This document shows, in pieces, positions 10,801 to 40,772 of a stretch of DNA of 64,000 nt. The notes beneath the pieces were generated by a model. The model was not told the origin of the DNA. It did no database searches and worked only from the letters and a program-made list of their open reading frames with translations. Source of the DNA: Chrysomallon squamiferum. Lineage: Eukaryota; Animalia; Mollusca. Both the position numbers and the translations under genes were made by a program. How positions within the stretch are numbered: the first letter of the stretch is position 1; the number at the start of each line of letters is the position of its first letter. The stretch spans positions 25,358,001-25,422,000 of the forward strand of contig CM022671.1 in the NCBI GenBank assembly GCA_012295275.1, read 5' to 3'.

Positions 10801-13800
10801 AGCTTTAAGCTTTTTCTTCTTTGAACTCTGAAGTATGTGGCGCTCGTCATAATCACTGATTTCTGATTCCGAAGATGAGCTACTCGACTCTTCTTCATTT
10901 CCAGACTGTTCTGACAGGCTCGAATGTCCTGAATCAGAATTGTAACTGACTTGTTTCTTTTCCTTCGACTTTGACTTTTTATCTGAGGCAGATTCATCAC
11001 CAGCAACATGGTTTTTTTCTTGAACAAGAAATAAATTATCTTAAGTTTTAATATTTCAAATTCTAATAATTAAAATAAAATATACAACTATTCAGAAAAA
11101 TTAATGTTTAACTTGTTGGCAACAGTATTAATATATTAGAAAGTAACACTGTTAATCAGGTTATGTTTCTTTTGTACCTAAAATTGTTCCTCCACGTCTT
11201 TCGTATTCTGCGGCCATTTTCGCAATCTCTAAATCTTCATTTTCATCTTCATTAAGATCAGCAAAAACATCCTGAAATAAATTAAAGATGACAAAATTAC
11301 CAAGAAAATTAATTAATTTTTAACAACATTTCACTTTATGGCATTAATTATCATTAAGATTTTATAATGACAAAAAATACGGAATTTGAAACACATTAAT
11401 GCAGATTGCATATGAAAATATGTATCAGAGGGTTTTAACAAACATTATCATTTTGGTAAACATACATAAATATATATAAAAACAAACAATTTGTCGTTTC
11501 TTCTTCCACTTTAACAGAACATAATTCAAAAAGGTTAATATTAAAAATATTTTGTTAACATATGCACAAGAATGATTTTAATTTTAAGATGTAACATATG
11601 TGAACAAACCTTGCTGAACCAAGCGTTCAGTTTGCGCTGTGTCTTCACGTCGGGAGTTTCCAAATCCACAACCAGTGGGTTCCTCTCTGTTTCATCTTCA
11701 TCATCACTGCACAAGTAGGTAATTAAAAAAATATAAAACTAGTTGTCAGTTTTTTAATTTCATTTAATTACAATTTATTACTAATTCTCTTTGATGGAAA
11801 AACATATAAAACATTTATCTCTTTTACTGATTTTCTTCTAGGTACAGATTAAATTAAACAGATAAAAATCACTTATAAAATAATAAATTTTTCTTGTAAC
11901 AAAATGTTTAATTTAAAAAAAAATACATTTTAGAAATCTTCATTCAGAATAGTTTTCTGTGGCAGATCTGCAGAGCAAAATATATACACATGTATTACTA
12001 ACTTACCTATCTTGAAACTGTCTTCTCCAAAATTTATGACATACAACGTAAGTGAGAAATGAAATTACACCTTAAAGATATACAGTATTCCCTCGCTATT
12101 CGCGGGGGTTACGTTCTTTACGTAAGTACAGGAGGACAGTAACACCGCATAGCATAGTTACCCATACAGTATTACTGTACCGTAAAGTCATATGTATTAG
12201 AATTGACAGAAAGTGGAACAAATTTAAAGGCAAACAGACAGATAAATATAGTACGCACAGTTCAGGTAATAATAATACAATTCAGTAATAATATGCAATT
12301 AAAAACATTATTAATACACAGTCACAAAAAATATGCACTGTACATACAGTGTATGCATTTATAAAAAAATACGTACTGTATTGCAATAATAATTGAAAAA
12401 ATTTGATATTGTTTGTGCGGTTTACCGAGCATTTGTTTTTATGACGTTATGACGCTAGCCTGGTATACCAGCATACGATGCGATAGGGTTAAGAGCCTAA
12501 CCCGCGAATATGTGGGGCCGCGAATGGGGTTCCGCGAACAGGTGAGGGTATACTGTAGGGTAGACAATAATGTTATTAGCAGTTTTAATGTGAATTAACT
12601 AACTTATCATTTTCCAAATACTGGTCTGATTCTTGGTCAAATTCAGGATCAGAATCAAACTCAATATCTGAGACTTCATCAGGATCAAGATAGTCCTTTG
12701 TGTCTCGCTCATAACTAACAGTTGCCTTCTTCAGTCTGACTGGAGCATCTTTTTCCAGTTCCTCTTGTTGCTTAGCCAGATCTGTGTCTAATAATGACTG
12801 ATCTCCTGTCTCTATGTTCTCAAGATCCTAACAACAGAGCAATATTAAAGATTATGAATGTGCAAAGTGTTGTACGTATGAGATTAAAGCTAGGTTCTAA
12901 CAGCGGAATTTACTTTTCTCTTGAAAAAGAAACAATTATATGTATCATGTAAGTTGTATATAGCAGTTTTCAAATAGATTTTTAACACAGTAAAATATAC
13001 ATGTTTAATTAAAAAGAGAGATTTGTGATATGTTTATTTTCCAATATGTTTGACACTGATGAAAATGATAAAAAAAATTATTTTAAAATATTAAATACAT
13101 ACATATAATTTCTGGCAGAAATCAGTTAATTAAAGACTAGTGAATAAAGGCTGCAATTCCTTGCAGTTTTTTTCAAAGTATTCTTAAATAATGAATACAA
13201 AACAAATATTGAGGTTTTATTTAATCATGTAACAATAATTAATTGGTTTATGAATGAGATGCATAAATTTAAAAAATACAAATTAATAAACATACCGTCA
13301 ACGTTCTGACTCTTTAATTATTATTTGAAACATTTGATAATATGAGGAACTGAAGATAAATGAAGAAAGAAAAAATAACTATTACGATATTGTTACATTT
13401 TACCTTTTTGCTTTTAATTTTTGTCAGATTAAACAGGGAAATATCATCAACAAAATCATACTTGTCATCAGGTATGACAAATTTCATATCCATCTTATGT
13501 CGCAGTTTTGACTTTTCTTTGCGAGTCTTTCTAAGTTTTCTACAAACAATAAAATTAGTGATCATTAACACAGACTGGTAGCTTGAAAAAATTTAATAAC
13601 ACCTGCAGAACAATAAATTATTTTGAATTTTGTTGTTTCTTATTTACAGTGACAGTTAATGTAAAAATCCAGTAATTTAAGAATTATGGATATTGATTTG
13701 ATTTTTCTTTTAAAATCTCTAAGAGAAAAAAATCAAGCTCCATGTTTCAACTATAAAAGACAATATAAGTAATCAGTAATTCCATGGAGGATGCCAAAAA

Positions 13801-23279: not shown

Positions 23280-26055
23280 CACATTTTGAAAGGTAAAGAG
23301 GCTTAAACATTTCTTTTGTAACTTCAGTTATCATTGTCTTTATTAGATTTATTAATCTTTACGTTCTGTTATTTCATTTTCAGGAGAAGCCCAAAATGTT
23401 CAGCAAGGAGCAGGAGATTAACCACGAAGCTGTGATGAAGAAACTGTTTGAGATCATCTCTGCTCGTGGTAAGAAAGGAACAGACAGATCTGAGCAGATA
23501 GAATTGCTGAAGGAATTGAAATCAGTAGCAGAAACGGCCAACCTTGGTCCTGCTATTGCTGTGAAAATCATGTTCAACATCATGGCTGCCATCTTTGATT
23601 ACAACCCAAACATAGCAACTTGCATGAGGAATGAGATGTGGACTTAGTGAGTAAATTCAGTTGTTGATTCTGAAAATGTTTTTCTTAGGATGAACATAAC
23701 ATTTTGACTTTAATGAATGACAACAAATTATAATTTCATTACTTAAAAAAAAAAAAAATTAACACTAATTTTTACATTTTCTCGTTTGCAAGTTTTTAGA
23801 GAAACAAGACATAAAGCATTGGATGCTTTGTATCTTATCAGACATATACGGTATCTGTAAAACAGATTTCTTAAACTTTTTTTTTTATCATTTTATTTTT
23901 TGATAAACATTTATAAATCTGGATTACATCTGTGTGAATTATTATTGGTAAAATAGTGTACAAATGTTGTGAAACTTTAATTAATTGTTAATCATGTCTT
24001 TGTTGTTTATTTTAGCTGTATGAATGCGATGAAAGAACTGCTTGACTTGTTGATAAACAACCCAGACATCACTGTTGGAGAACACATTGCAGATGACAGT
24101 GAAAATGTTGAGGTATGTGTCAGATAAACTACTAATTTAGACTGGAGGTACATTTCATTAGCTGACATAGCTGTAATAGATTATGATAATATTTATATGT
24201 TTTTAGTTAACTGTTCTCAAAGTTGCAGTTAATGAATACATTTTTAGATGTTTCAGTAGCTTTATAAGAGTATTCTTTTCACAGTGATTTTTGAAATGTT
24301 TGACAAATATTTTCTTCATCACATATTTAAACATCTATTTAAAGAGAATGATTTGATAACACAACACTTTAGATGTTAATGAACAAATTATTCTAGATCT
24401 CACCATTTGGTGATATATTTTTTTTTAATGAGAAAATTATCTTAGACGTCCCAATTTTGTGATTTTTTAAATGAGTGAATTAGTTAAGACTTTGCCATTT
24501 TGTGATACTTAATGAGTGTATTATTTAAGGCTTTACCATTTTGTGATACTTAATAAATAAATTAACTTCAGACTTCACCTTACCGAGTGCGAGGCTGTGT
24601 TCTGACCACGCTGGAGAGAATGGATGAAGAGTTTACAAAGATGCTGCAGGGCTGTGATGCACACAGCACCGAATATGTAGACAGGTAGCTGATTCAAAAA
24701 CACTGACTAGTGAACTGAATCTGTAAACTGTAGGACAGATAAAATTCATTGAATATTGACAAAATTAATTAATTCTGAAAACTGTTTAATACAGAAAACA
24801 GATAATGTGGATTACTGTTATAAAAGTAAAATGCTGCCCACTTATATGTTCTGCCGTGATGGTTGATAATTTTCACATATAAGAACAGAGTGCATCATAG
24901 ACATACAGTGCCTACATGATAATATGTAGAGAGTCAGGTAGCATACATTTATGATTATAATGATAAAAAACATGAATGAAAATCTGTTTTAACACTTAAT
25001 CTGCAGAAAATTATAACTGATAATCAAAAGTGACTTACATTTCCTCCTTTTGGAAAAAATAAAAGATGATGACGAAGAAAGATGTATTTGTTAAATTATG
25101 TGTTAATAACCATTCCTTTTTTATTGTAATGCTGTATCTGGTTATTTCATTGCTTCAGAGGTAGACAGTAACAGATTCAGAAAATCCCATTTTTATTTTC
25201 AGGTTACAAGATGAATATGAAATAAATGACATGACCAAACGACTTCAGGTTTATCTTGAACAGAGAGGCACATCAGAAGAATTGTGTCGTATTTATCTGA
25301 GAAGAATTGAACACATATATTACAAGGTAAATGTGATAACGTAATGGCTTGAAATACTTTTGTATGGTAATGCAGGTATGACCTTACATTAGATTAAAAT
25401 AATGTTACCTGAATGAGTGTTATAACCTGACAGACTAATTATTGTCAGGTGAAGTTCATTTGTGTTTATTTTTGTGATGGCTACTGAGAGTAAATTGTCT
25501 TTTGTGGAACAACTTTGTCTGTTCTGCATATTCATGATTAAACGTAACAGGTTTCTGAAATGTGTTGTTAGTGTTATTTCTCATCATGTATTTGTTATAA
25601 TGTACAAGGTAAGGTATTTAAATTTATTATTGTGTTCTGAGCCAGTTCCTTTTTTGATTTTACGTCACTTCATAAAACAATGTAATTGAGATTTTAAATC
25701 CTGAAGGCATTTTTTAAAAATAATTGGCAAATATGTCAATTTTCTGTTATGTGCATTGTGAACATCATCTGTATTCAGTCATTTGCTCTCCGTAAAGATA
25801 AATAGATACTTCATTTTAATGCACAATTTATTCATTTGATGTTATGTTTACTTCAATATATTTTTAAATCTAAACAGTGATGTCTACAGCTATTAGTCAT
25901 TTGATTATTATTAGTTAAAGTAGAATTTTATAATTGTTATTCCTAGTATCTTGAAGTATTTTATTTAATTGATAGTACAAAAGATTTCTTAAATTTCAGT
26001 TTGACCACAGATGCTTTGAACCAGAAAAAGCGGTATGACTTAAAATTCATTTATT

Positions 26056-26100
<45 letters not shown>

Positions 26101-29100
26101 TTGTAACTATTAATTTAGTTTGGCTTTTACTGCAGTAAAATGTTTTAAGACTTCAGTTTTGTTTTAATTACAAATATTATATATAAAGAAGAATGACAAA
26201 TAAAAATTCCTGTATTTTAAACCTTTTGTTCTGATAAATAATTATTATTAACTGCTAATGTTTATATAATGAATCAGCTGATTCTGTAAAAAATTTTAAT
26301 ATAAAATTAATACACCATTCACACTATTTTATTTAATTTTATTTTTTGATGATTATTTTAATTACAGTTTTTGATAATAAAAGAATCTTACAGAGAGGAT
26401 AAGATATAATTTTTATATAGGTGTAAACATATTTTTTTGTTTTAAAAGAAAAAATTTCAACAAAAGTGATATATAATATTAATAATGTTTGTTAAAAGAC
26501 TGATGGTGAACCATCATCTGAAGAAGACATGGACAAACTCTGCAAATATATTTATGCTAAGGACAGTACTGACCGACTGAGAACCCGTGCCATTCTGTGT
26601 CACATTTACCATCATGCACTGCACGATCGCTGGTTCCAGGCTCGGGACCTTATGTTGATGTCACATCTACAGGACTCAATTCAGCATTCAGACGTACCAA
26701 CTCAGGTTGGTGTTTTGAATCATAATCAATTTGTTTAATGTTTGTTTCATCTCTGTTTATATTATAAAATAAAAATCAGATATTTTTTTTTTTTAAATTT
26801 AAACTTTGTTGAAAATTAAAATTACTAATTGTGGTTGAAAAAAAAATAAAATAAAATAAACATGAAAAAGTAAGTTTTTAGTCTTATTTGTTCTCAGTAC
26901 TAAGACTCCAAAAATGTATAAACTGTAATCTTCTGAACATATTTTCTAATTTGAATCTGCATGTAAAAAGTAAGACGACGGTAATCTGTATGTTAGAAAT
27001 AAAATAAAGATATTCTATATGATGTTCAAGTTTTTGTTACATTGACACTGTTTTCAGATAATGTACAACAGAACGCTGGTACAGTTGGGTTTGTGTGCGT
27101 TCCGCCAGGGAATGATTCGCGACGCACACAATGCCCTCGTTGACATACAGAGCAGCAACAGAGCTAAGGAGCTGCTTGCTCAGGTAAAATTTTGTATTTT
27201 TATCATCCTCTTTATAAGAAATGGTTTTAGAAAATCAGTCAAAAGTGCTTTTTACACTTTTTATTATTAAAAGAAGCTCTTATTGGCATTACACTTTTAT
27301 TGCTCTTTTTTGTGTTTTTAAAAGAAACATTTTTTTAAAGGTATATTTAACAATTCTTGGCAGGATTATTTATCACAGAGGAATTAATTATCATCACAAA
27401 AATTATAATGAAACAAAATAAGTTTTTACCATCATGCCCTTATGATTACAAGATTACTTGTGATTTTTTTTCATAATCCAGTGACAACATTCAGATACAT
27501 AAAGAATTTTTTTTCTCATGTTTATTTGCTTGTAGAACAATTTGATATTTAATATTAAAACTTGTAACAATTAAAAATTATTTTTTATATTACAATATAT
27601 GAAACAAAATCTTATCTTTTTCATTCAGGGCCTACTGCCACAGAGACAACATGAAAGAACCCCAGAACAGGAAAAAATTGAAAAACGTAGACTATTTCCT
27701 TTCCACAAACACATAAACCTTGAACTGCTGGAGTGTGTGTATCTTGTCTCTGCAATGCTGCTCGAGATTCCATACATGGCAGGTAAAATCAGCTGTTAGA
27801 CAACCCAAAATACTCATTGTAACACATGTTTATAGTATCATACACTTCATTTAGCAACTTCATCTCTAATTTGTCTTTATTCTTTATGCATACCAGTAGA
27901 CCCAATATGGTGACTTGTACCAAATCTGGGGGGAAAGTGTATGCAACATAGTTTTGATGCAGGTTGAATTTAATCTGTGTCTGCCAATATGTTATGGCAG
28001 ATGTGTTTATTCACTGCTTACATAACTTTATTTAAACAAAAGCCTTTAGTCCATACCAGGAAATATATTTTTGTTGATCCAGTTAAACAAAAGATTTAAT
28101 TACAACTCTTTGCATCCAGCATTAAGACTGTAAGTATTCTAGGGACCAGTTTATTCAATTTCTGTCATTCAAGGCAGGTTTTAGGAAGGTAAGTACTCTG
28201 TATAATCTGAAATTTAATTACTAAATGTAATATCTTTACAGATCTTTTTATCTTTTCTGAGTTTTTTTTTTATCTTTGCATAATATATTTCAATGTATGG
28301 TAATTAATCATATTTAGTTTTTACTTTGCATACCAGTAGACCCAAAATGGTATACTTCATTATATTTTGGAGGGAAAGTGTGTGCAATATCATAGATGCA
28401 TTTGAATCAAATCTGTACAAACTAATATATAGTTTATTACATTTGAATCACTGATGACAACTCTTGCTTATTTCTGAACCATAAGACGGCTATTTTTCTG
28501 ATTTTATTAATTTCTGACTTTTAAACAGGTAAGTTCTATGTTTCACACATTTAACTACTTTTTTGCTTTAGTTCCAGTAAATGGAGCTAGTTTCAGGTAA
28601 TTCATTAAATGATAATGTGGTTACAAATTACTATATCACTGAATTGTATCTGGTTCTTTGACACAGTTTGTAAAATCTTTCATATTCAGTTTGGTTTTCC
28701 TTAATGCATACTTGTAGACCCAGTATTGTATTCTCTATATACTACTTCTGGGGGGAAAGTGTATGCAATATAATCCATGCAGATGGTTGTAAATTGTATC
28801 TGTCTGTTTATCATGACAAATATATTGATTCACTGCTGACAGTTCTTTTCCTAAATTACATCATTTATTCATAACTCAGTTATTTTTAATTATTTCAATT
28901 TACTTTTGTTAAAATAAACTAATATATTTTCTACAAATATCTGGCCTTTATTTAAATGAATTATTTAGTTATATTGTTAAATTGTGCACATCCAGAACTC
29001 ATTTTGCTGATCTTGTTGCAGTAGTTATAACAGTACAGTAATGGCAACCTGACAGATTTACAAAAAATATTACTTAGATGTAAAAAAAATGTTTAGGGTT

Positions 29101-32100
29101 AACTTGGCTTTTATTCAGTTTTAATTCCTAATGACTGCATATCTGTAGACCCAGAATGGTTCATACTACCATATTTGGGGGGAAAGTATATGCAATATTA
29201 TAAATGCTCTGAAATCAAAATTGTATTTGCTTTTGCTGTAATGCTAATACAGTATCTAACAGCTAACAGATTATTTTCCTTATAAAGTAACATTTTATAA
29301 ATCTATAGTTCCTTTGAGAATCCAATTTATTTTTGTTTAATTATTCTGTTTTCAAATTGAAATGTTCAGATTCTTTAAAAGTGACTTTTCAATATCAGTG
29401 ATTAATTATTATATATTTACAATGGATTTTTTATTATTATTATTATTATTTTTTTATTATTACCATTGTTTTATTAATTTCTTACACCTAACATCATTAA
29501 TGTTCATTTTATTGTTTATTTTAAAAAGATAGAGAGAAATACTGAAAGTGTTGTGATTGTCCATTTTAGCTCATGAACTTGACATTCGACGTCGAATGAT
29601 CAGCAAGAACTTCCATCACGTGATGAAAATGAGTGACAGACAGACTCTGACAGGTCCCTCCAGAGAGCATGAGGGAGCACGTAGTTTCCGCTTCCAAGGC
29701 AATGAAGATGGGAGACTGGAAAGCCTGCAAAAACTTCATCATCAATGAAAAGATGAATGCAAAGGTGATTTTGTATTTTAGGGTGTCTACAGACAGTAAT
29801 AAAAAATTCCTCTTGTTAAACTTTGAAAAAAAAACTCTTATTAAACTTTGAAAAAACCCATACATTTATGTGTATAATTGTGAAAAAACAGACATTTTTA
29901 GATATCTTGATAGATTTTTTAATAGGAAGTATTTTAACACTTGATATTCCATTCATATGTTTGGCTTGTGTTTGTGTGTCTATGTAGATCTGTAATCACA
30001 ATTTTAAAGTTGTTTCCTTTCTCATAAGAAAAGACCCAAATGTACATTTCTGTCATCTTAATTTGACAGATTGTTTCCTGATGCAGTTGCAGTGATTTAG
30101 CATTTTCCTAACTATAGATCTTACTTTTGCAGGTATGGGATCTGTTTTACCAGAAGGACAAGGTGCGAGATATGATAGTAAACAAGATACAGGAGGAGAG
30201 TTTGAGGACATACCTGTTTACATACAGCAGTGTTTACGACTCACTCATCATGGATCACCTCGCTGAAATGTTTGAACTGGACAAGTCTGTCGTCCACTCC
30301 ATCATCAGCAAGATGATCATCAATGAAGAGCTGATGGTAAAGTCTGAGAAATAATTCTGTCAAAATCTTGTCTCTGAATTTAATTTTAAAAATGTGACTG
30401 ATGATCATAACCTGTATTATAGATCAGTATATGAATCGTGATGTCATTGAAGAGCTGATGGTAAAATGTAAGAAATAATCATCATGAAAACGCCTTTCTG
30501 AATTTAATTTTAAAAATGTGATTTCATAAATAAACTATTTTGATATGATAGTTTAAATTTCAGTCTCAGGTAGGTAATTACATTTTATATAATCTCCAAT
30601 TTTTATAAAACATTCAGAATGAATTATAATAATAATAAGAATAACAGCAGTAACAACAACCAAATTAAATTTCATCATCTACAGCAGATCAACTTTGTAA
30701 TTATTTTACTTGATGTACTGATTTAAAAGAGATTTTATTACAATTACATTATGTGAATGTACTGATTTAAAAGAGGTTTTATAACAATTACATTATGTCA
30801 ATGTACTGATTTAACACGGAATGAGATAGAATGAATGTGTGGATGATTGCAGGCCTCGCTAGACCAGCCTACCCAGACAGTGAACATGCACAGGACAGAG
30901 CCAAGTCGACTGCAGTCCCTGGCTCTGCAGTTAGCAGAGAAAGTGTCCACTCTGGTGGAGAATAATGAACGCATCATGGAGATAAAACAGGGAAACTATT
31001 ATTTCCCAAAACAAGTAAGTCTTTCTTCTTGGTTTTTGTTCCATTTTTTTTTTTTTTTTAATTTTTTTAAATGATGTATGTAGCTTCTGCAGTTAAGAAA
31101 AAATTACTTTAAAAAAAGTTGTGGGAAAAAAAAAAAAAATAATTTTTGAAAAAAGTTGGATTGGAAAAAGATGTTTTGAAAAAAAGTTTTAAATAAAGTT
31201 TCAGTAGAATGAATAAAATTGATAATATTGCTGATTATTTCAAACAACAGTTGCATGGGTTGATGTTTATTGTCTTTTTGTAGTTTACATGATTTCACCC
31301 CTTTGTTTAACAATCTTTTTTATTTTTTAATAGTTTATCAACTTTTTTTTTTTTTTTTTAATGATTTTAAACAACTAACCTTTTTTGCTTTTAGAAGTTT
31401 TGTAGTGTGCTTTGTACTTACATTTTTAACTGTTTATTTTTTGTTCCCTTTGACAACATAATAACATAATAAAATTTCACTGGTGACCTTAGTAATGAAA
31501 AGCTTGTTATGCATTGTTTAGAATCTGCACTTCCATTACTGTCATATATAGATAATTTTAAAAAAATTAAAAATATATAACATTAAACAATAAAACATAC
31601 AAAAGGAGACTTTATTACACCATACAAATCAATCAACATTGATAATACAAATGTAATTCGCAATATTGTAAACTTTAAATTTCAAAGGTTTGATGGTTCT
31701 CTCTTTTAAAAAGCTTAATACCTTACTGAATTTGAGGAATTTATTCACTAAAGAAATTTCTTTAATAAGTAAAATTCTTTTCTGGAAAGATTCTTAATAA
31801 AAATATTAATAAAGAATGTCAGGCTGTTTTAATTTTACTGGTTTTATTTGGCCAGACGTGATCAAATGCATCTGTCATAGAACTAATTAATGCAGAAAAA
31901 TGCCAAAACCACAGTTAGTTTCTATTTGGAAACTATTGCTGTGAAAACACTGCAGAACTCACCAAACAGTTTTGAAAATAATGGAATGAAAATTTTCCAA
32001 ATGTAAATACGTGGGGAAAAACTCTTTACACCATTTCTGCAAACAATAATATAATTCAACAAATTTTATTCAGTTACTTTTTCAAACAAAGCTTAATTTT

Positions 32101-34570: not shown

Positions 34571-37188
34571 GCCCCTCAGATCGTGGAGATCAAGGAAGAC
34601 AAGGTGGTTGGAGTAAGTATCTAATAAATTCTGCCTTCGAAATGAACAGCAAACAATCTGCAAATCAAATTTTTAATATTAAAGTTGCAAAAAAGTCCAC
34701 TTCAAAATAACAGTTTCTTACCATAAGTTTCAGATTTCAATAAAAACCAAATCAGAGCAATAATTATGATAGCTAAAAACAACAGCAACCAAAAAAAAAA
34801 AAAAATGGTTGGGAATGTAATTAAAAAAAAAAAAAAAAAAAAAAAAATCCCTAGCAAAAAAAAAAATTGCAATACAAAAAGATGGTTGAGATAGCTGGGG
34901 GAAAATGCTCACAGAATTTTAAATATGCAAATATTACATATCTAAAATATTGATTGAAAGCTGTGTTTGCTGCTTATTTTGAAAGCCATCATTGTATTAT
35001 TCTTTAGTTATTATTTTATAATTTTTTGTTTGTTTTGTTTAGTTTTCTTCTTGTTTTGTTTTTTTTGTGTTTTTTTGTGGTTTGTTTTGTTACTGTACAG
35101 AATTTGAACAGACTGGTCATTAAGATGTATTTTTTCTCTCCCTGTCTTCACCCTGTTTTTTTATTATTAAGAAGAAATTCTCCTGCACCATTATGGAAAC
35201 AAACTTTCTCTTGATTGCACATAAAATTTCTGGATTTGTCTATTCACTTGGCCCACTGGTGTTAATTTTAAACCATTTCTTTGTTTAGATCGAGGAGAGG
35301 GGAGACAAGGGGGCTGGAGTAAGTATCACAGAGGAGAACATGCATCTTTTATTTGGTGGATTTTTAGTAAATTCTGCTTATATATGTCAGTTTGACAAGA
35401 CTTGAATTTTCTTTTCTGTGTTGTGACAGTTTTTGCATGATTATTGCAGGATAAATAATTGTACGCCTTGTAAGATACCTAATATCCAGTTTTATACATT
35501 TTCTATTGCAATGACTTTGTTTGATAAATGATATGTTGATCTCTGATTTTGCAATGCAAAAGTCCAGTTTACTTTCACATATATTTTATTTAAGTTGATC
35601 TTTCGGCATACTCATCTTCATCATCTGATGGTGATCATGTTTTGTCTGTGTTCATGTTATTCACTAGAGTTTTGTATGTATTTTTATTGTGGCTGTTGTA
35701 ACACAGTGGCAGTTAGTGTTGTATTCAGCTTTACGACAAAATAATGCTCAGGTAACCATAATGCTTTTGAAACTTGTCTTCATAAACTGGTGTCACAATT
35801 ATGATGGCGGCTATGCTTTTTTTAATTTATTTTATTTTTCAGTGTTGCACCTTTCATATTTTGCAAACATTTTAAGATCATTTAAAGTGCCATTGGTAGG
35901 ATGGGTCTTGCTGTCAATGACCAAATCGTTTTTCCTTCGCCCACCATTTAGACATTTTACATCTGCAGATTAATTTATCCATATAGAAATGATTATATAA
36001 TAACAAATCCTCTCCAGCATCAGCATAAGAGAAAAAAATGGACACATCCAAGAAATAAAGCTGCCATATTAGATTCATGTGCTAACTGTAGCTAAAACTT
36101 TGAAAGGAGTAATCACTGAATAATGTTTAAAAATGTCCCAATATTAATATATTAATATTGAGGCATCATTAAACATTATTCAGTTGATTGCTCATTTCAA
36201 AGTTTTGGCTACAGTTAGTACATGAATCTAATATGGCAGCTATTTGGCATGTTAAATTATTGTGAATTTATTGATGGCATATAAGATTGACCAGGTTTCA
36301 TTTAACAGTGTTTGCCCATTGGGTCCTAATTTTAAACCATTTCTTTTAGATCGTGGAGAGGGCAGACAAGGGGGATGGAGTAAGTATAAAGACAGTGAAA
36401 TCTGTTTTATAACTGTTCATAAATAATAATGTTTGATTGTTTTGCAAGTTACATTTTCACCTATTTTTGTAAGATTTGTTAAAATGTCCTTTGTCCAGAT
36501 AAGAAAATGAAGGCAGAATGGAAAGTATGTAGTTTTTTTTTTTTTTTGGTTCCCCATTTGTTGTTGTATGCATTTCCATGATCATTTGCATTGGTCATTG
36601 ATTTTAGAAACTGGGTGGATAGACAGATGTTTCTTATTTTGCATAATAATAACTCTTTATTCTTCAGGTTTGATGTATTGTTTTGAAATTCAGTTTATTT
36701 GACTGACATGTTTATTTTCAGATCGGGACAGAGATCAGGATAGATGGAGCCAGAATCAGGGTTGGGGTAGGTACCTTATCGAATTAACAGTGATAAGTCT
36801 TTTTATTATTCATTTGTAAAATTTAAAGTGTTAAAATTTTTGTTTCTTTAATAAAATGAAGTAAAACTTAGTTTAAAATAAAATGCAAAGGCTCTCTGTG
36901 ATGACTGTTAGTTCAGTTTAAAAGAAGTAAATAAATGATATATATAATGATATATATTATTTGTATTTGGAATAAATCGGCACAAATTTGGATATATCAT
37001 GTTTTCACTGGTTCTTCATGGCACTGTTTGTTTCTATTAGTTTTTACCTTTACATGGTTTACTGCCATCTGTTAAAAATAACTGAAAAATATTGTCCTTT
37101 AATTATTAAAGAATATTCAAATTTATTATTTTTATTTATGTTTACAGGGCGACGAGGAAACAGGGACAACAGACAGAGGAATTACTGA
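20330..37188 (+). CDS. EIF3C: Eukaryotic translation initiation factor 3 subunit C (one internal +1 frameshift and one phase mismatch as assembled)
   Basis: Exons 20330-20421, 20582-20647, 20959-21035, 21360-21472, 21836-22087, 22555-22685, 23055-23190, 23384-23646, 24016-24112, 24572-24684, 25203-25326, 26000-26032, 26499-26705, 27058-27183, 27629-27782, 29570-29764, 30133-30336, 30853-31014, 34067-34108, 34580-34612, 35289-35318, 36350-36379, 36722-36766, 37148-37188. Motifs [68 protein letters not shown] and the PCI-domain segment [19 protein letters not shown]. Confidence 0.96.
23245..23275. repeat. (AC)n microsatellite in an eIF3c intron
   Basis: About 15 uninterrupted AC units. Confidence 0.95.
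24378..24580 (+). repeat. Degenerate ~41-49 bp tandem repeat (about 5 units) whose last unit supplies the acceptor and start of eIF3c exon 24572
   Basis: Units follow the pattern aatga.t.aatta.ttaAGacttt.ccattttgtgatactt. The final unit, aataaataaattaacttcAG|acttcacct, is the real exon junction. Confidence 0.7.
27886..28025 (+). ncRNA. SNORA58: Box H/ACA snoRNA, SNORA58 (ACA58)-like, copy 1
   Basis: 5' hairpin TGCATAC-CAGTAGA-CCCA...TGGG-GGGAAA-GTGTATGCA, degenerate H box ACATAG, 3' hairpin with a TGTCTGCCA/TGGCAGATG stem, and ACA 3 nt from the end; 140 nt long. Matches the vertebrate SNORA58 pattern as I recall it (GCATAC..GTAGACC...GGGGGGACAGTGTATGCA). Confidence 0.85.
28326..28462 (+). 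ncRNA. SNORA58: Box H/ACA snoRNA, SNORA58-like, copy 2
   Basis: TGCATACCAGTAGACCCA...TGGAGGGAAAGTGTGTGCA, H box ATATCA, ACA at 28457-59. Confidence 0.85.
28704..28844 (+). ncRNA. SNORA58: Box H/ACA snoRNA, SNORA58-like, copy 3
   Basis: TGCATACTTGTAGACCCAG...CTGGGGGGAAAGTGTATGCA, H box ATATAA, 3' hairpin closed by GCAG/CTGC, ACA at 28839-41. Confidence 0.88.
29135..29271 (+). ncRNA. SNORA58: Box H/ACA snoRNA, SNORA58-like, copy 4
   Basis: TGCATATCTGTAGACCCAG...TTGGGGGGAAAGTATATGCA (compensated basal stem TGCATAT/ATATGCA), H box ATATTA, ACA at 29266-68. Confidence 0.85.
30444..30522 (+). repeat. Local tandem duplication of an eIF3c exon end plus its 5' splice site
   Basis: TGAAGAGCTGATG|GTAAA...TCTGAATTTAATTTTAAAAATGTGA occurs at about 30325-30397 and again 124 nt downstream. 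Confidence 0.85.
30713..30814. repeat. 44 bp tandem repeat, about 2.3 copies
   Basis: atgtactgatttaaaagag(a/g)ttttat(t/a)acaattacattatgt(g/c)a at 30713 and 30757, with a partial copy at 30801. Confidence 0.9.
36059..36241. repeat. 183 bp near-perfect palindrome (foldback element) in an eIF3c intron
   Basis: Left arm AGCTGCCATATTAGATTCATGTGCTAACTGTAGCTAAAACTTTGAAA...; right arm ...TTTCAAAGTTTTGGCTACAGTTAGTACATGAATCTAATATGGCAGCT. Pairing continues to the centre (CAATATTAATATATTAATATTG). Confidence 0.93.
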
Positions 37189-38271: not shown

Positions 38272-40772
38272 TCAGAAGATCATATTGTGAGGATACTGCC
38301 TATTTTTCAGTGAAAACATTGCTCCAAGGTATCCAAAAATTAATTTTTTCTCCGGATGTTGTCTGATAATATCTAGAATTTGTTTATCAACTGCAACTTG
38401 ATCTTCTTTTCTTTCATCTGATACAGTATACACCTGAAAACAATATAATTTGTTTTTTTGAAATAGGGTAACAAGCAGAATGACAATGGAACATAAAATT
38501 ATCCCAAATCAGTATTTTATGATGTTGATTTGGTTAATTTCATTTGTTAAGTTAGTCATGAATTCAAAATTAAATTAAGGATATAAATCCAATACTGTGT
38601 TGTTTTATTAAAAAAAAAAAAAAAAAAATACATATTAGTCTTTATGTGACATCATGCCCACAGGTTATTTTTCTTATATGCAGAGACATTCCATTAGTTC
38701 TGTTTTGAACTGCTGCTAATAAACCTATATATATATATATGCTCGACAGTTCTATTAATTTCCTGATTACATATGTGAAATGTATCCATTATGGAAGAAA
38801 ATTCATGAATATGAAACAAAAAACTACTGTTTGCTGTGTTAATAGATACAAACTGTGGATGTAAAACTACTGTTGTGCACTGCAAATTTTAAGAGATAAT
38901 ACAAACTGATATACCTGTGAAAATAAGCAGCAGATCTAAACCACTACAAACAGAAGACATTAATATTTTGAAAGATGACACAGGGAAACAAGTCATCCAT
39001 CTGAAATGCTCACCTCTTTCTTGGTGTCAAAGATTTCACCTTCTGTGTGTTTTGGTTTACGAAGTTTCTTTCTGCGGAAGTAATCGTCATTCAGCCTGTC
39101 TGGCATCTTTACACCTTTGATATCAAGACGTGTTTTAGTCGCAATCACATATCTCTGGTTGATTCTTCTCAGCGGGCATCCATTTAAGTGGAACGGACCT
39201 GTCAAAATAGAGTAAATTCAGATAATTTAAATTATACCAAACACAACAAGCAAAATAGTTTCTCTGATGTCAGTATTTTTTTTTTTTTTTTTTTAAACAA
39301 CCCTGATCTCTACAATGAATGATTTTTCACAAAGTCAGTTTTGTATAAATTAACAGCATGAATAGTTTTGTAATGAGCTCATGTCTGAATACATTTTAAT
39401 ATTAATGGTTTATTTGTATAATTGCAAAATCTGGGAAAACAAAATTGATGTCATATGCAAATCCTACTAGATGTAATGTCATTTTTTACTAGGATCATAC
39501 CAAAATCTTGAACAAACAGCAGAGCACTTATGTGGCAGAACCCATTGCAAATACATAAAGTAATGAATGTATACTCCAACATGCAAAGATTTGGATGTCA
39601 TTTGGTTGTGTGTGGGATAATCATTATCTGTGAGGATATCAATGTGTTTTTTAAATACTGAAAGACATGATCAATGGTCTCCAAAACTTTTAATTTACTC
39701 TTATTTGTCATAGTAAATTAACTTCAAATTTAATCAAAATCTTCTCTCAATCGAAGTATTAAAATCAATGTTCTTGGTTAATATTCATACAAATTAAAAT
39801 ATTCTTAAATTTTACTGTTACAGTCTGTGAAGGCATGTCGCAACAAATCAAACTAACCTGTAACCAGCAGTAAGCCAGTCCCCAGCTGCTTCAGAAAAAC
39901 AACCCTCTGAAAAAAAAAAAAACTTTACTGCTTTATCAAACATTTTTGTTTTCTCAGCAAGAAGTCCAAACAATTATCAGTTTATAGTAAAAGAAGTATA
40001 ATTTTAAACATACAAATAAAGGTACTGTCCATATCTGCACAGAAGGCCCATATTCACATTAAAACATTTACAAGATGAAACAACTTATTTTGTAACATCT
40101 TTTTATAGTTAGTTTTAAATTGACACAATGAAAATGAAAAAACAAGTTTATCCAAAGAAGACCATATGCATTTGTAGTTAAATTTGGGTTCCTATCTAAA
40201 TTTACCTTTCCCTTATGTCTGCCAGCCACAATAATGAGAATGGTTCCAGAAGAGATGGTTGGTCTTAGCTTGTGTGTGTGTTTGCAGAAAGGCTTCTTAC
40301 GTGGCTTCAACCTTCGAGGTTTATCTTCTGTTGGGTAAAACCGAGGCTGAAATATAAATCATTGCAACATCTATACTGTGGCCAAATGTATCAACAGTAA
40401 GGTAAATTATAAATTTTTATGTCACTAATAATATTTTATTGTTTATCAGATCTGTGCATTTTCAAGTTAGAAATATCAAAAAAGTGAAAATACATTTTTA
40501 CAGTAAACCTCAATGCAAAAAATCCATTAACTTACTGGTCTTGTAATTCGAACTAAACGTTTGCCTCCGTTTTTGTCACCTCCAATATCCTTTTCTATCA
40601 TGCGTTTTGGGGCAACCGCCTTTTTAGGCAAAGTATGTTTTCGTCTCTTGCGTCTTTTTTCCATTTTACCTTTAGTGTCAGTCTTCGTTTTGGCTGAAGG
40701 CTTGGCTGAAGGCTTGGTTGAAGGCTTCGCCGAAGCCTTGGCTGCAGGTTTGGCTGCATTTTTTGGAGCCAT
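38272..40772 (-). CDS. RPL6: 60S ribosomal protein L6 (eL6), about 257 aa
   Basis: Coding exons 40536-40772, 40206-40346, 39858-39906, 39014-39198 and 38272-38433, in phase. Motifs [66 protein letters not shown] and YPHNMIF*. Confidence 0.97.

Follow-up and report, generated by a model that had tools for sequence, protein, structure and literature searches.

Strong donor-like sites between four intronic SNORA58-type snoRNA copies of a Chrysomallon squamiferum eIF3c gene, and a possible stepwise route of intron removal

The window described here is a stretch of 64,000 nucleotides (nt) from the snail Chrysomallon squamiferum (assembly GCA_012295275.1, contig CM022671.1, positions 25,358,001 to 25,422,000) and includes a gene for eIF3c. 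One intron of this gene, referred to as the host intron, carries four related repeats, for all of which SNORA58 (RF00418) is the best Rfam family; they are called copies 1 to 4 of a small nucleolar RNA (snoRNA), and the gaps between them spacers 1 to 3. The genuine anomaly of the intron lies on the donor side of spacers 1 and 2. As judged from the sequence, it is about an even question whether part of the transcripts are spliced stepwise, as an alternative to direct removal of the intron, through candidate cryptic exons in these two spacers, which would place copies 1 and 2 each in a lariat of its own and copies 3 and 4 together in a third. Here we present the features of the intron, the points for and against this reading, and a comparison with known systems.

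Donor and acceptor matrices were derived from 44 introns of three genes of the window, 23 in eIF3c and 17 in FTSJ3 (mapped by homology) and 4 in an RPL6-like gene (mapped by eye); the median intron length here is 459 nt. The 1,747 nt interior of the host intron was compared with the interior sequence of the remaining 43 introns as control (23,305 nt, 23.3 kb). GTAAGT occurs three times in the host interior, at 28130, 28189 and 28529, and three times in the whole control (binomial p 0.006); the statement of the initial annotation that all three hexamers fall into spacers and none within a copy is correct, and the excess that goes with it depends on how strictly the motif is defined, as outlined below. 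Donor CAG/GTAAGT at 28529 scores 13.3, at least as high as 100% of the 44 true donors, and AAG/GTAAGT at 28189 scores 12.4, at least as high as 98% of them. Both exceed the authentic donor of the host intron (9.0) and the highest donor in any control intron (10.9); CAG/GTAATT at 28597 reaches 10.0, and the sites at 28130 (5.3) and 29038 (2.7) are weak. Counting both strands, just five sites in the window score 12 or more, namely three coding-exon donors, 28189 and 28529. The motif MAGGTAAGT is found four times on both strands (128 kb) with 1.0 expected, twice at coding-exon donors and twice, within 340 nt, in the spacers. Shuffled sequences in which at least two of the three spacers held a donor numbered 0 of 4,000 at a score of 12 or more and 16 of 4,000 at 10 or more. 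The strongest control donor, TAG/GTAAGT at 12006, follows an insert in an FTSJ3 intron (12006-12557, minus strand) that is GC-richer and has inverted ends, and which we take to be similar to a miniature inverted-repeat transposable element.

The motif positions listed in the initial annotation were all recovered: AG at 28527-28528 directly before GT at 28529, 66 nt past the end of copy 2 at 28462; TTTCAG/GTAATT at 28596/28597; the 10 nt segment 28120-28129; GT at 28189; and the 16 nt segment 29022-29037. In what appears to be the better reading, the two sites of a spacer form the ends of one candidate cryptic exon that begins with GTAAGT or has it close to its first base (Table 1). Spacers 1 and 2 share a parallel layout, with the acceptor 94 and 66 nt past the preceding copy, a candidate exon of 69 and 68 nt, and an end donor 137 and 107 nt before the next copy. 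When acceptor, inner donor and end donor are summed into a three-part score, 0 of 77 control windows come up to spacer 1 and 1 of 96 to spacer 2; for the tail after copy 4 the figure is 69 of 86. In spacer 2 the end donor is weaker than the donor that would be regenerated, and in spacer 1 this order is reversed. Candidate exon 1 contains an in-frame stop read directly from the sequence, is preceded by a branch-like TTAAT motif about 21 nt upstream of the acceptor CAG 28119, and looks like a poison exon.

Table 1. Coordinates of the host intron, the snoRNA copies and the candidate splicing features (positions in the window)
Feature	Position	Strand	Characteristics
eIF3c coding exon upstream of host intron	27629..27782	+	tblastn with Gigantopelta aegis eIF3c; 3' end CAG
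Host intron, 1,787 nt	27783..29569	+	eIF3c exon boundaries
SNORA58-type H/ACA copy 1	27886..28025	+	RF00418 E 1.8e-5, 39.6 bits; ACA at 28020
Candidate cryptic exon 1, 69 nt	28120..28188	+	acceptor CAG 28119 (4.8), inner GTAAGT 28130 (5.3), end donor AAG/GTAAGT 28189 (12.4)
SNORA58-type copy 2	28326..28462	+	RF00418 E 1.6e-4; H box AUAUCA, ACA at 28457
Candidate cryptic exon 2, recursive-splicing type, 68 nt	28529..28596	+	acceptor CAG 28528 (0.6), GTAAGT at first base (13.3), end donor CAG/GTAATT 28597 (10.0)
SNORA58-type copy 3	28704..28844	+	RF00418 E 7.4e-6; H box AUAUAA, ACA at 28839
Spacer 3	28845..29134	+	acceptor-like 29021, donor-like 29038/29098, all at background level
SNORA58-type copy 4	29135..29271	+	RF00418 E 1.9e-3; H box AUAUUA, ACA at 29266
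eIF3c coding exon downstream of host intron	29570..29764	+	tblastn; apparent +1 frameshift in this sequence

Two other origins or functions of the spacer signals were considered and rejected. Splice sites copied from the real exon end would leave similarity between the upstream region and the spacers, which was significant in 0 of 4 pairs, and the single AATAAA of spacer 3, at 28913, is no evidence for cleavage at a polyadenylation signal, as the motif occurs 2.5 times per kb in the controls.

In animals mostly one snoRNA is found per intron, because only the outer ends are freed when a lariat is trimmed; a pair that shares an intron yields a joined long non-coding RNA with snoRNA ends (sno-lncRNA) unless it is cut apart, according to the cited parts of PMC11028025, so that several copies in one intron call for a separating step. 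In the proposed route donor 27783 would be joined to 28120, which would release a lariat with copy 1, and 28130 or 28189 would then be joined to 28529, releasing a lariat with copy 2. The upstream exon ends in CAG, and joining any GTAAGT to it thus regenerates a perfect donor; the regenerated CAG/GTAAGT would outcompete 28597 and be joined to 29570, with copies 3 and 4 in the last lariat. The predicted pieces are 337 nt, 340-399 nt and 973-1,041 nt long, the first two of usual intron size. While the step at spacer 2 could be traceless, as with a recursive-splicing exon (RS-exon) of flies, the step at spacer 1 would add 10 or 69 nt to the product, and with them a premature stop, probably followed by nonsense-mediated decay, for which reason the route is probably alternative and not constitutive. 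Normal eIF3c mRNA would be made either through the direct junction or by way of spacer 2 only. For copies 3 and 4 a further cut would be required, failing which they would persist as a remnant with two snoRNAs. The expectation that retained inserts disrupt the frame is borne out, as all nine inserts or extensions tested run into a stop within 13 codons (the 69 nt insert stands outside this set).

Several observations weigh against this route. On the acceptor side the spacers are at background level: 57% of control windows equal the best acceptor of spacer 1, 54% that of spacer 2 and 88% that of spacer 3. Acceptor-donor pairs enclosing exons of 0-30 nt give a Fisher p of 0.059. Since a consensus donor MAG/GT always reads AG/GT, a zero-length exon depends on its acceptor alone. 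The acceptor at 28528, part of what had been annotated as a textbook zero-length-exon site, scores 0.6, in the bottom 2% of the 44 true acceptors. Its -6/-5 positions are AA, a combination that 0 of these 44 show, while 29 have TT; the combined score of 28528/28529 is equalled by 7 of 51 control AG/GT sites, and the textbook label is not supported. For the ratchet point assigned to spacer 1 no usable zero-length acceptor exists, as AAG 28188, with AG at -6/-5, lies below all 44 true acceptors. The acceptor at 28596 has TT at -5/-6 and pyrimidines at 6 of 16 positions. It is fair to add that the authentic acceptor of the host intron, at 29569, also ranks third from the bottom among the 44 (leave-one-out score 1.8). 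Spacer 3 fails every test: its weaker pair is present as annotated and is indistinguishable from control intron, with a three-part score equalled by 28 of 80 control windows. The donor excess also fades at looser definitions, with p 0.13 for GTAAG, p 0.14 for donors at the median true-donor score (3 in host, 16 in control) and 335 of 4,000 shuffles as good at that threshold (score 8). Both the high donor thresholds and the three-part score were set with the sites already in view, and the 44 introns that underlie the matrices had been mapped either through homology or by eye. Furthermore, spacers 1 and 2 may be duplicates, in which case the two strong donors are possibly not independent: their similarity is reached by 3 of 200 shuffles (one pair out of ten compared), by 8 of 500 for the sequence that follows the donor and by 60 of 500 for the module itself, with ambiguous alignment registers.

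Two of the control AG/GT sites deserve mention in their own right. The site at 38914-38915 (minus strand), in the last intron of the RPL6-like gene, has a strong acceptor and the second best combined score of the 51 (18.5); Rfam detects no snoRNA in this intron. The top-scoring site, at 36667-36668 (plus strand), lies 53 nt upstream of the mapped eIF3c acceptor 36721 and may represent an alternative acceptor of that gene.

If the motifs are unused, a single chance donor-like site would have been copied with its spacer in a tandem duplication, the intron would leave as one lariat, and the copies would be freed by exonucleases together with an endonucleolytic cut, or else maturation would be limited to some of them. 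This explanation, which we regard as rather unlikely, gains from the background level of the acceptors, the control AG/GT sites that do as well, the silent third spacer, the weak homology between spacers 1 and 2 and the p value at the median-donor threshold, as well as from the fact that introns with several snoRNAs are common in flies according to the cited passage of PMC6619189, which names no splicing route for them. It fits less well with the crowding of two of the window's four MAGGTAAGT motifs into the spacers and with the observation that the top two donors differ from the pair that aligns best between the spacers; moreover, the copies are merely 66-75% identical, and unselected motifs should have decayed over such divergence. 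A role of the donors alone would account for a signal confined to donors: they could act as decoys that bind U1 and slow intron removal, as decoy 5' splice sites control the retention of introns longer than 1 kb in human cells (cited part of PMC7373989), or as alternative 5' splice sites joined to 29570, in which case copy 1 or copies 1 and 2 would lie in an extended exon, a stop would trigger decay and the snoRNA ends would be freed. Both extensions of the upstream exon do stop after 5 codons, yet such a role does not explain why acceptor and donor lie at parallel distances of 69 and 68 nt, and we hold it to be very improbable.

The model of the initial annotation goes further than the partial route, in that the intron would always be removed piecewise through zero-length or micro-exon sites, with an own lariat for all four copies and no endonuclease. 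AG and GT are indeed juxtaposed at 28188/28189, 28528/28529 and 28596/28597, the pieces would have normal intron size, there is fungal precedent in the cited parts of PMC5033589 and PMC3596301, and weak acceptors can be functional here, given that 3 of the 44 true ones have scores under 2. Against this, a traceless path through spacer 1 would require AAG 28188, spacer 3 offers no usable acceptor-donor pair, and the stops in all non-zero inserts tested would be hard to square with a constitutive route in an essential gene. We therefore consider the full model improbable. Piecewise removal as such keeps the strong donors between copies 1 and 2 and between copies 2 and 3 and the usual size of the resulting pieces on its side, and has the weak acceptors and the third spacer against it; an own lariat for each snoRNA is not supported, as copies 3 and 4 would stay together.

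The initial annotation had presented the system as undescribed, which does not hold for fungi. Recursive splicing with a zero-length exon and nested splicing between clustered snoRNAs have been published for Candida, Lodderomyces and Debaryomyces (PMC5033589), a stepwise removal of 'intron-intron-intron' units for Euascomycetes (PMC3596301) and alternative splicing of snoRNA hosts for Neurospora (PMC2780460), all as given in the cited passages. In these passages the fungal hosts (Candida/Lodderomyces snR57-55-61 cluster II; Debaryomyces and Euascomycete cluster III) resemble the snail intron in having splice sites between neighbors, exons of zero or few nt and separate lariats (PMC5033589, PMC3596301). 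They differ in being non-coding, with distinct C/D snoRNAs and a full intron for each, demonstrated by expressed sequence tags, reverse transcription PCR or RNA sequencing, whereas the snail host is a coding intron of eIF3c with four paralogous H/ACA copies and candidate signals in two of the three gaps. An own donor, branch point and acceptor for each snoRNA and a non-coding host, which characterize the fungal complex introns, are thus absent here, as two of three spacers carry signals and eIF3c codes for protein. In fission yeast, mixed clusters are processed by RNase III cleavage (cited part of PMC12508059).

Among animal systems, the RS-exons of flies come closest to spacer 2. They are about 50 nt long and have a regenerated donor stronger than the end donor (cited part of PMC8605326), and spacer 2 likewise combines a juxtaposed AG/GT with a short, out-of-frame candidate exon of 68 nt whose end donor (10.0) is weaker than the regenerated donor (13.3); a second juxtaposed AG/GT with a strong donor is found at 28596/28597. 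On the other hand, the cited part of bioRxiv 10.1101/006163 gives fly introns of at least 11,341 nt with segments of at least 2,596 nt, compared to 1,787 nt for the whole snail intron, and TT at -5/-6 in 196 of 197 fly sites, where the snail site 28528 has AA. The snail sites are therefore not classed as ratchet points, since they lack a pyrimidine tract with TT at -5/-6 and a very long intron. The cited passages of bioRxiv 10.1101/006163 and PMC8605326 make no link between ratchet points or RS-exons and snoRNAs. In the fly Uhg genes and the 3' part of Nop60B/mfl, tandem snoRNA copies are placed one per intron by short non-coding exons, in the latter case inside a gene with a protein product as well (cited parts of PMC1821038 and PMC3396368). 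These exons belong to non-coding transcripts or 3' untranslated regions, whereas the snail candidates interrupt the reading frame and would have to be skipped, respliced or degraded. Our literature search found no report of splice sites between snoRNA copies in an animal coding intron; its coverage was incomplete, with the original fly cluster papers outside it.

Comparison with relatives was performed on the best 80 of 528 eIF3c relatives, mostly spliced transcripts. The junction showed no gap in 70 of the 80, and offsets of 3-6 nt at 40-51% identity in the other 10 are read as alignment noise; an intron-sized gap at the junction or a snoRNA copy was found in 0 of 80 loci. A pattern scan of metagenomes gave 0 matches, and these comparisons yielded no orthologous intron. 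All six G. aegis eIF3c isoforms among the proteins of the homologue cluster cross the junction without interruption, which is neutral evidence because decay-bound forms would not appear among listed proteins.

The four copies match RF00418 with E values of 7.4e-6 to 1.9e-3 and 31-41 bits, under the gathering score of 75, and no Rfam match reached the gathering level. They fold as hairpin-hinge-hairpin-tail and share the two-hairpin architecture of H/ACA snoRNAs. ACA is located 3 nt from the 3' end in all four, and an ANANNA H box is present in three, the hinge of copy 1 (ACAUAG) deviating from it. In the consensus fold two-sided changes affect 5 of 25 pairs, yet the covariation term is only -0.12. 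The first hairpin and the guide pocket of SNORA58/ACA58 (RF00418) are conserved in the snail copies, which differ from that family in their scores below gathering and in that four of them share one intron. Neither a fifth copy nor a second Rfam-detectable snoRNA cluster was found within the 64-kb window; a home-made fold filter recovered all four copies and 6 weaker candidates.

The host gene was mapped with tblastn using the eIF3c protein of the vent snail Gigantopelta aegis, the nearest named protein to its product, which is 97% identical over one exon of the gene, compared to 71-81% for other named molluscs. A C-rich run at 29654-29661 (plus strand) in the downstream exon contains one base more than the GPPESM reading of the homologues, likely an assembly error. 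Further repeats on the plus strand include an eIF3c exon end with its donor that is duplicated into the next intron (30320-30397 and 30444-30521, 78 nt, 81% identity), three tandem-duplicated micro-exons for RG-rich repeats at the eIF3c C-terminus (34580-34612, 35289-35318 and 36350-36379), the number of such repeats varying among G. aegis isoforms, and short tandem arrays just upstream of eIF3c acceptors (24378-24551, 4 x ~41 nt; 30713-30800, 2 x 44 nt). The gene order from 438 to 64000 is 14-3-3-like (+), FTSJ3 (-), eIF3c (+), RPL6-like (-) and AP-beta-like (-). FTSJ3 and eIF3c were named by homology search; the names of the other three are our presumption from the translations.

As the principle has already been published for fungi, the present case, provided that the sites are used, would at most add a variant of it in a protein-coding intron of an animal. 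That recursive splicing through cryptic RS-exons between copies is the general answer of animals to several snoRNAs per intron is a tentative idea, more doubtful than the partial route in this intron. If it were true, the traceless path would lead to eIF3c mRNA and the 10 and 69 nt paths to decay, and snoRNA and protein output could be tuned separately; the same hidden sites would be expected in intronic snoRNA clusters of flies and other invertebrates. With such introns split by hidden splice sites, the rule of one snoRNA per intron would hold after all, and recursive splicing would gain a concrete purpose outside giant introns.

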